Shown: piece after piece, positions 7,917 through 8,714 of the stretch
Layout of the letters: every line of letters begins with the position of its first letter
Position numbering within the stretch: the stretch's first letter is position 1
Origin: Escherichia coli
GTDB lineage: Bacteria; Pseudomonadota; Gammaproteobacteria; Enterobacterales; Enterobacteriaceae
Strand: one strand, 5' to 3'
Assembly: GCF_003334405.1 (NCBI RefSeq)
Contig: NZ_QOWM01000025.1
Length of the DNA: 39,980 nt
Position numbers and translations under genes: made by a program
The notes under the pieces: model-generated
Told to the model about the DNA's origin: nothing
What the model saw: only the letters and a program-made list of their open reading frames with translations
Databases searched by the model: none

Positions 7917-8714
7917 AACTTGCTCCTTAGCCGTTATCGTTTCGAATATGTCATCCTTTTCATTATTTACATCCTTGTCCGAATCGTTGTTCAATATAGT
8001 AAACGCCTATAAGAACTTTACCCTTCGTGAACTAATACGTCTATTAACACTAATCAATACTTCAGATTTATCCATCACGCACTCCATATATTGATCCTAA
8101 GTAAGATTCCTGGTTGTTATCAGCTTGTAAATAGCAAACAAAAAGTTAACGTTTGCGGATTACTGCCCAAGAATAAGTTATCAATAACCAGTTTGTGATC
8201 TCTGAAGAATATTACTAAAGTTAAAATGTAATCCGATTTAAATATCGAGTCTCCTTGTTTCGACTTAAGCTGGCAATTGGATTGCCAGCTTTCTTTTAAC
8301 GCATTGAAATTACCTGAGTAAATAACGCATTCATGTCTTCAGGTTTTTATATAGCGTCTGGAGACACGGATATTTATGCAATGTAATCAACGCCAGTTGC
8401 AAAAAAATGAACCCGGATTACTTATTTAACCGCCCATAGCATCAACGCTTACGGAACTCTTTGTTCACTTTCCCACAGCACTTTTAAAACATTAAACCTG
8501 ACTACGGAAAATATCAGCCATGATAATGTTTGAAATGGCTAATTTGCCATAGAGTGAAAAAAATTAGATGAAATTCAGTAGGTTGAAATAATCACTAGCA
8601 GGTAATTATTTCAATGATAGTGCGCAATTGATCTACAACACTGCGTAGCGGAGAGAGTATTAATCGGATCATAGTCACATCAAGTGACTATGATCCGGGT
8701 GACAACCGGGGTAA
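7917..8714 (-). promoter_or_regulatory. Long AT-rich gadE upstream regulatory region (about 800 bp, multi-promoter region)
   Basis: An 798-bp non-coding AT-rich gap upstream of gadE; established knowledge says this region carries several gadE promoters and regulator-binding sites. Individual sites not resolved here. Confidence 0.5.
8666..8696. repeat. Perfect 13-bp inverted repeat (ggatcatagtcac-atcaa-gtgactatgatcc), 19 nt downstream of the hdeD stop
   Basis: Read directly from the sequence; no adjacent U-tract on either strand, so not a classic intrinsic terminator. Confidence 0.5.

Follow-up and report, generated by a model that had tools for sequence, protein, structure and literature searches.

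A conserved RNA stem-loop with a probable protective role at the 3′ end of hdeD mRNA in Escherichia coli

Just beyond the stop codon of hdeD, in the acid fitness island of E. coli, lies a perfect palindrome that we interpret as a conserved RNA stem-loop acting on the hdeD-sense strand, where it marks the 3′ end of hdeD mRNA and most likely shields it (probability of roughly 0.7). A first-pass annotation, made from the sequence alone, had proposed two functions for the palindrome: a 3′-end stabilising hairpin for hdeD, or a binding site for a dimeric regulator. The first of these is supported by a Term-seq end 4 nt past the stem, by compensatory changes in the arms, and by C-rich, G-poor downstream RNA with a bicyclomycin-sensitive region. 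The second finds no support, as set out below.

The window, by which we mean the whole stretch of 39,980 nucleotides that was analysed, carries the acid fitness island in reversed orientation with respect to MG1655. The genes mdtE (5893-7050), gadE (7389-7916) and hdeD (8715-9287) are on the minus strand, while hdeA, hdeB and yhiD are on the plus strand, and the segment 8300-9100 is 100% identical to K-12 strains. The palindrome had been placed immediately downstream of hdeD and at the distal edge of the gadE regulatory region, and both placements are right: hdeD runs on the minus strand from 9287 to 8715 with the stem beginning 17 nt past its stop codon, and, with the gadE ATG at 7916, the palindrome occupies -749 to -781, the end farthest from gadE of a 798-bp intergenic region. 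According to the literature, this spacer holds the gadE promoter and sensory region, with starts at -21, -124, -324/-317 and -566, and it integrates more than 10 regulators. The T3 start site at -566 corresponds to window position 8482 and gives a T3 leader of 566 untranslated nt. The gene and the hairpin are defined as follows.

8715..9287, minus strand: hdeD CDS, 190 aa (open reading frame and RefSeq annotation of the identical K-12 locus)
8665..8697, minus strand: stem-loop in the hdeD 3′ UTR (sequence, fold energy, covariation and copy number)

The palindrome, ggatcatagtcac-atcaa-gtgactatgatcc at 8666-8696, matches its first description exactly in sequence, but the 13-bp arms given there slightly understate it. 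Pairing runs one pair further, through C8665-G8697, resulting in perfect arms of 14 bp (8665-8678 and 8684-8697) around a loop of 5 nt (8679-8683). As hdeD-sense RNA, the stem-loop reads CGGAUCAUAGUCAC-UUGAU-GUGACUAUGAUCCG; all other perfect short-loop inverted repeats in the window are shorter. The predicted RNA hairpin has an energy of about -25 kcal/mol on either strand (-25.0 kcal/mol on the hdeD-sense strand), with fold z-scores in a 111-nt context of -4.8 for the hdeD-sense strand and -4.4 for the other; as single-stranded DNA, the palindrome folds at -16.9 kcal/mol. A weak 3-bp helix (CCG/CGG) is also present in the hdeD 3′ UTR, just 5′ of the main stem. Rfam, searched over 7300-9600 with E up to 1, places no family on the palindrome; the sole match, a CRISPR-repeat inside gadE, was discarded as chance.

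Within E. coli, the hairpin occurs as two alleles. The K-12-type hairpin is found in 3935 of 5426 complete genomes, and a second, B2-type allele, typical of SF-468-like strains, in 1307. Relative to the K-12-type, the B2-type has substitutions at three of the five loop positions and a compensatory change of the outermost pair, U-A in place of C-G, while the 13-bp core is identical and the flanking spacer carries many substitutions between the two alleles. A genome search for further copies, suggested with the first description, reveals exactly one chromosomal copy per carrying genome (5242 E. coli genomes) and no plasmid copy in the same 3935 + 1307 genomes. This bears on a well-known type of protective palindrome. 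REP/BIME elements are extragenic palindromes that form RNA hairpins, block 3′-5′ exonucleases and stabilise upstream mRNA, for example in malE-malF, and REP elements constitute a multi-copy family with a shared consensus. The hdeD palindrome is likewise extragenic and likewise forms an RNA hairpin, but it is single in each genome, never on a plasmid, and unrelated in sequence. Because there is one copy per genome, we rule out a REP-like repeated element.

A scan with the HdeD protein, using one genome per species, led to E. albertii, E. whittamii, three further Escherichia lineages and Kluyvera cryocrescens. In every Escherichia lineage found, hdeD is followed by a hairpin of equal size, although the flanks are ~40% divergent and the spacer between stop codon and stem carries a 16-nt indel. 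In the alignment of eight Escherichia lineages, paired cells amount to 93.8% and three stem pairs are doubly changed (G-C to C-G, A-U to C-G, and C-G to U-A). The covariation score of 0.230 compares with 0.102 for shuffles and is reached by none of 500 shuffles; slid registers score at most 0.082. The arms show a mean pairwise divergence of 0.18, against 0.59 for the loop, 0.40 for the upstream flank and 0.39 for the downstream flank. Compared with E. coli, two inner pairs are switched on both sides (GGATC/GATCC to GCCTC/GAGGC), and across Escherichia the length of the loop is fixed while its sequence is free. This is the conservation pattern predicted by selection on a base-paired structure, and, since the arms change only in compensatory fashion around a free loop, it fits pairing better than recognition by a protein, for which the letters of the arms themselves would be expected to stay the same.

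The same comparison bears on a chance or neutral palindrome without function, such as a relic of a local duplication-inversion. The modest Term-seq peak described below would suit such a relic, but a 14-bp perfect inverted repeat (loop 3-8 nt) arises in none of 200 first-order Markov shuffles of the window, a 13-bp one in only one of the 200, and the hairpin has been kept by compensatory changes despite the divergence of its flanks and the indel. We regard a functionless palindrome as scarcely credible. A Dam/GATC function was also considered and rejected: both GATC sites in the stem are present in E. coli only, the other Escherichia species having GCCTC/GAGGC, and, because the inner-pair switches remove both sites, Dam methylation is not a conserved property of the element.

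Outside Escherichia, the hdeD homologue of Kluyvera cryocrescens (57% identity) is followed, 14 nt past its stop codon, by an 11-bp perfect hairpin of unrelated sequence that sits between convergent genes; by analogy, this may lend weak support to a role for a 3′ hairpin. We also note that the assembly of Flavobacterium paronense CECT 8460 includes an 8.6-kb contig (NZ_JAUFQN010000010.1) on which the K-12-type hairpin accompanies an hdeD of E. coli type (98% amino-acid identity); the contig almost certainly stems from contamination with E. coli DNA.

A Term-seq check of the hdeD 3′ end had also been suggested, and the published data contain it: an hdeD-strand end maps 4 nt past the stem. In Supplementary file 1, sheet M63 0.4, of Adams et al. 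2021 (eLife 10:e62438, PMC7815308), a 3′ end is listed at MG1655 3657621 (+), with 1150 average reads and the class “orphan”, and its printed flanking string spans the whole hairpin. RNA of the hdeD strand ends in ...GAUCCGAUUA-3′, which defines two further features.

8661..8661, minus strand: RNA 3′ end (Term-seq, NC_000913.3 3657621, + strand; 4 nt 3′ of the stem)
8661..8714, minus strand: hdeD 3′ UTR, 54 nt (first base past the stop codon through the Term-seq end)

The caption of the published list speaks of 40 nt upstream, whereas the actual strings are 61 nt long (PMC7815308); the 3′ end is string position 51, a reading checked on thrL, where the 3′ end is at 256 and the stop codon ends at 255. 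Eight printed strings were mapped and yield window = 3666282 - MG1655, constant between 7201 and 10371. The label “orphan” follows from the distance of the end from the stop codon, which at 54 nt exceeds the cut-off of 50 nt for the class “primary” (PMC7815308). Coverage is modest, and of the three growth conditions only M63 glucose at OD 0.4 has the end in its curated list. The hde genes should be on in LB at OD 2.0. The hdeD end is absent from the LB OD 2.0 list (PMC7815308).

Elsewhere, hdeD is absent from the TERMITe supplements. In the full-text literature searched, the palindrome sequence is printed in no main text, and neither a paper on hdeD together with bicyclomycin nor a deletion or stability experiment on the hairpin was found. 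Lalaouna et al. 2018 deals with the hdeD 5′ UTR only, and a bioRxiv 2026 match for hdeD and hairpin was set aside, as it is about H-NS chromatin “hairpins” of other sequence. Within hdeD itself, a short hairpin with a U-rich tail at 9148-9160 (-), 131 nt from the start codon, coincides with an ORF-internal Term-seq end at 9156 (MG1655 3657126, 1502 reads, M63), which suggests premature termination or processing within hdeD.

The mapped end raises the question of how it is made. The palindrome was described as lacking a U-tract and as not being a canonical intrinsic terminator, and both descriptions hold. Neither strand has a U-tract, the tail being AUUAAUACUCUCUCC on the hdeD-sense strand and GGUGACAACCGGGG on the other; only 3 of the first 8 nt past the stem are U on the hdeD-sense strand; no A-tract precedes the stem, where the sequence is CCCCGGUUGUCACC; and a scan for consensus terminators, which required at least 5 T in 8, did not call the palindrome. 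Canonical intrinsic terminators have a G+C-rich hairpin with a run of U starting 0-2 nt past it. Like them, the hairpin has a similar length and energy, directly follows a gene, and has a precise RNA 3′ end nearby; in contrast to them, it has neither U-tract nor A-tract, and the end is only 4 nt off the stem.

A weak, non-canonical intrinsic terminator, in which the stem and the few U residues of AUUAAU release some polymerases and exonucleolytic loss of a few nt follows, would account for a strong stem (-25 kcal/mol) right after the stop codon and for the precise end adjoining it; moreover, the Rho signal described below cannot be pinned on hdeD unambiguously. We nevertheless consider such a terminator unlikely, given the 3 U in 8 nt, the missing A-tract and the scan without a call, an end 4 nt past the stem where 7-9 nt is usual, and a tail that is not kept U-rich in other Escherichia species. 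In addition, the excess of C over G downstream and the bicyclomycin-sensitive region fit Rho.

This downstream region, on the same strand, is the last feature to be defined.

8549..8660, minus strand: candidate Rho utilisation/termination zone, C-rich and G-poor (composition and a published Rho coordinate)

In the 116 nt after the stem (8664-8549), the C:G count is 25:13, and the strand becomes G-rich past ~8520; the intergenic region as a whole has more G than C (16.6% C, 19.4% G). Supplementary file 2 of Adams et al. 2021 (PMC7815308) places the peak of a Rho termination region at 3657733 (+), which is window position 8549, 112 nt downstream of the mapped 3′ end, with a Rho score of 6.83 and p = 2e-20. 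These data are from DirectRNA-seq with and without bicyclomycin in LB at OD 0.5 (PMC7815308). The signal is ambiguous for hdeD: with bicyclomycin, coverage downstream (475) exceeds coverage upstream (251), and the 800-nt downstream window includes the gadE T3 leader. Instead of hdeD read-through, the score may stem from gadE transcripts on which Rho acts or from induced gadE promoters. The gadE T3 leader is itself likely a Rho substrate.

The combination of features is nonetheless a familiar one. Dar & Sorek 2018 (Nucleic Acids Res 46:6797, PMC6061677) described Rho-dependent transcripts whose precise steady-state 3′ ends lie just past stable stem-loops. Neither U-rich tails nor A-tracts accompany these stem-loops, C exceeds G in the RNA beyond them, and they guard the RNA against PNPase and RNase II (PMC6061677). 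hdeD has a hairpin, compensatory conservation of that hairpin, and a steady-state 3′ end at the hairpin foot, and it resembles the described transcripts at each step: a stable stem-loop soon after the stop codon without U-tract or A-tract, an end just 3′ of the stem, C over G downstream, and a bicyclomycin-sensitive region beyond. It differs in that Rho dependence and trimming are inferred for hdeD, the bicyclomycin signal overlapping the gadE leader. On the strength of this feature match, a protective 3′-terminal hairpin is the best explanation, and release of hdeD transcripts would be Rho-dependent rather than driven by the hairpin.

The protective hairpin would work as follows. Transcription of hdeD would pass the stop codon and enter the intergenic region, whose first part is untranslated, rich in C and poor in G; release there would most likely be effected by Rho at scattered sites roughly 50-150 nt past the hairpin. 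PNPase and RNase II would then trim the uneven ends in the 3′-to-5′ direction and stall at the 14-bp stem-loop. A defined end would be left 4 nt past the stem, with the hdeD mRNA shielded from further decay and presumably gaining in stability. As a likely side effect, hdeD transcription would be kept out of the gadE promoter region.

The strand on which the hairpin acts deserves comment. A terminator that does yield ends on both strands is close at hand, that of the ArrS sRNA, an 11-bp perfect hairpin AAGCTGGCAATTGGATTGCCAGCTT followed by TCTTTT at window 8267-8297 (+). Its end at 8297 (+) has ~983,000 reads in M63, and there is a second end at 8263 (-) (Adams 2021, PMC7815308), which falls inside the gadE T3 leader; the ArrS hairpin therefore gives ends on both strands. 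The ArrS hairpin proper (8267-8291) and the hdeD hairpin are both perfect hairpins in the hdeD-gadE spacer that coincide with mapped 3′ ends. However, the former has a U-tract on the + strand, an end of ~10^6 reads and a second end on the opposite strand, whereas the latter has no U-tract, a modest end, and an end on one strand only.

An action mainly on the opposite strand, where the hairpin would stop or stabilise antisense transcripts arriving from upstream of gadE, such as ArrS read-through, before they enter hdeD, could draw on this neighbour, on the equal stability of the E. coli + strand hairpin, and on the greater stability of the + strand version in E. albertii, E. whittamii and Escherichia sp. 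E1V33. These three share a stem position with an A.C mismatch in hdeD-sense RNA that becomes G.U in antisense RNA, and their antisense hairpin is 4-6 kcal/mol more stable. E. coli E69 goes the other way, with G.U pairs on the hdeD-sense strand. We therefore rejected the G.U versus A.C asymmetry as a clue to the selected strand, its signals being in conflict: one lineage points to sense and three related ones to antisense. The Term-seq lists are more direct, as no opposite-strand 3′ end is given at or close to the hairpin in any of the three conditions (PMC7815308); they hold no entries with the prefix 36575, and the sole 36576 entry is the sense end. Moreover, ArrS has its own strong terminator 370 nt before the hairpin. 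Action mainly on antisense RNA is thus highly improbable.

The other function proposed in the first-pass annotation, a DNA site for a dimeric regulator, can be extended to an element that forms a cruciform where the gadE control region has its distal border. The perfect two-fold symmetry with a 5-bp spacer is like that of many operators, and the arms are conserved around a variable spacer. The palindrome also lies within the “P3” fragment (-798 to -566), which is gel-shifted by ArcA-P with no site mapped, in a region known to integrate its many regulators. Yet both arms change together at two positions and keep only their complementarity, which would demand a matching shift in protein specificity, and the palindrome is 183-215 bp upstream of the most distal gadE start. 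ChIP-exo of GadE, GadW and GadX shows no site at the palindrome, the peaks being at the hdeA/hdeD divergent promoter and the gadE promoter. The half-site CATAGTCAC, allowing up to one mismatch, has 12 matches against 6.6 expected, and in the hdeD-gadE spacer these are only the two arms, with no further half-sites. The absence of the palindrome from the main texts searched also counts against this reading. A regulator site or cruciform element is, in our judgement, very unlikely.

YdeO was considered separately. Its box consists of inverted ATTTCA hexamers spaced by 9-21 bp (PMC4222967), and the palindrome, differing from it in sequence, was rejected as such a box. We note that a 13-bp inverted repeat at 8583-8614, 92% complementary (TTGAAATAATCAC / GTAATTATTTCAA), includes TGAAAT...ATTTCA and resembles a YdeO box; it lies ~100-130 bp upstream of the gadE T3 start (about 8482).

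For hdeD, the one new aspect is that a catalogued “orphan” Term-seq end can now be assigned to the gene, with a defined 3′ UTR. The hairpin also shows where the gadE regulatory region truly begins on its upstream side. Both points should help annotation as well as the design of reporter fusions to hdeD or gadE in which the hairpin is retained or cut. In itself, the hdeD hairpin is an ordinary member of a well-described class, and it opens no new question because the mechanism is standard for Rho-terminated E. coli genes. A dual use may be envisaged as a long shot, in which the hairpin caps hdeD mRNA and in addition insulates the 798-bp gadE sensory region at its border, symmetrically for both strands, or, as duplex DNA, is bound by some regulator. 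If so, the insulator would keep hdeD read-through from reaching the gadE promoters and antisense transcription from reaching hdeD, and the palindrome would be part of the feedback wiring of the acid-resistance circuit.

Further hairpins and a strain difference were observed elsewhere in the window. On the minus strand RNA at 11715-11743, a perfect 12-bp hairpin without U-tract, GATGCAGATGCT-GAGAA-AGCATCTGCATC, lies 11 nt past the stop codon of a 199-aa ORF (11755-12354, -) whose position identifies it as slp, and upstream of dctR; the Term-seq lists of Adams 2021 (PMC7815308) have no 3′ end at this hairpin. Between 10371, the 3′ end downstream of hdeB, and 16706, the agrB terminator, the offset between the window and MG1655 shifts by 1188 bp, which indicates that the window strain is without ~1.2 kb that MG1655 has there. 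The extra ~1.2 kb in MG1655 could be an IS5 copy in yhiS, and the intact 407-aa ORF at 12569-13792 would fit this. Finally, identical 11-bp hairpins AAAAAACCGACTTTGCGTCGGTTTTTT occur at 16709-16735 and 16940-16966, 231 bp apart and with A-/T-tracts on both sides. We take the pair to be the agrA/agrB repeats beside dinQ; the two hairpins look like bidirectional intrinsic terminators, and one of them matches the published 3′ end of the agrB sRNA.
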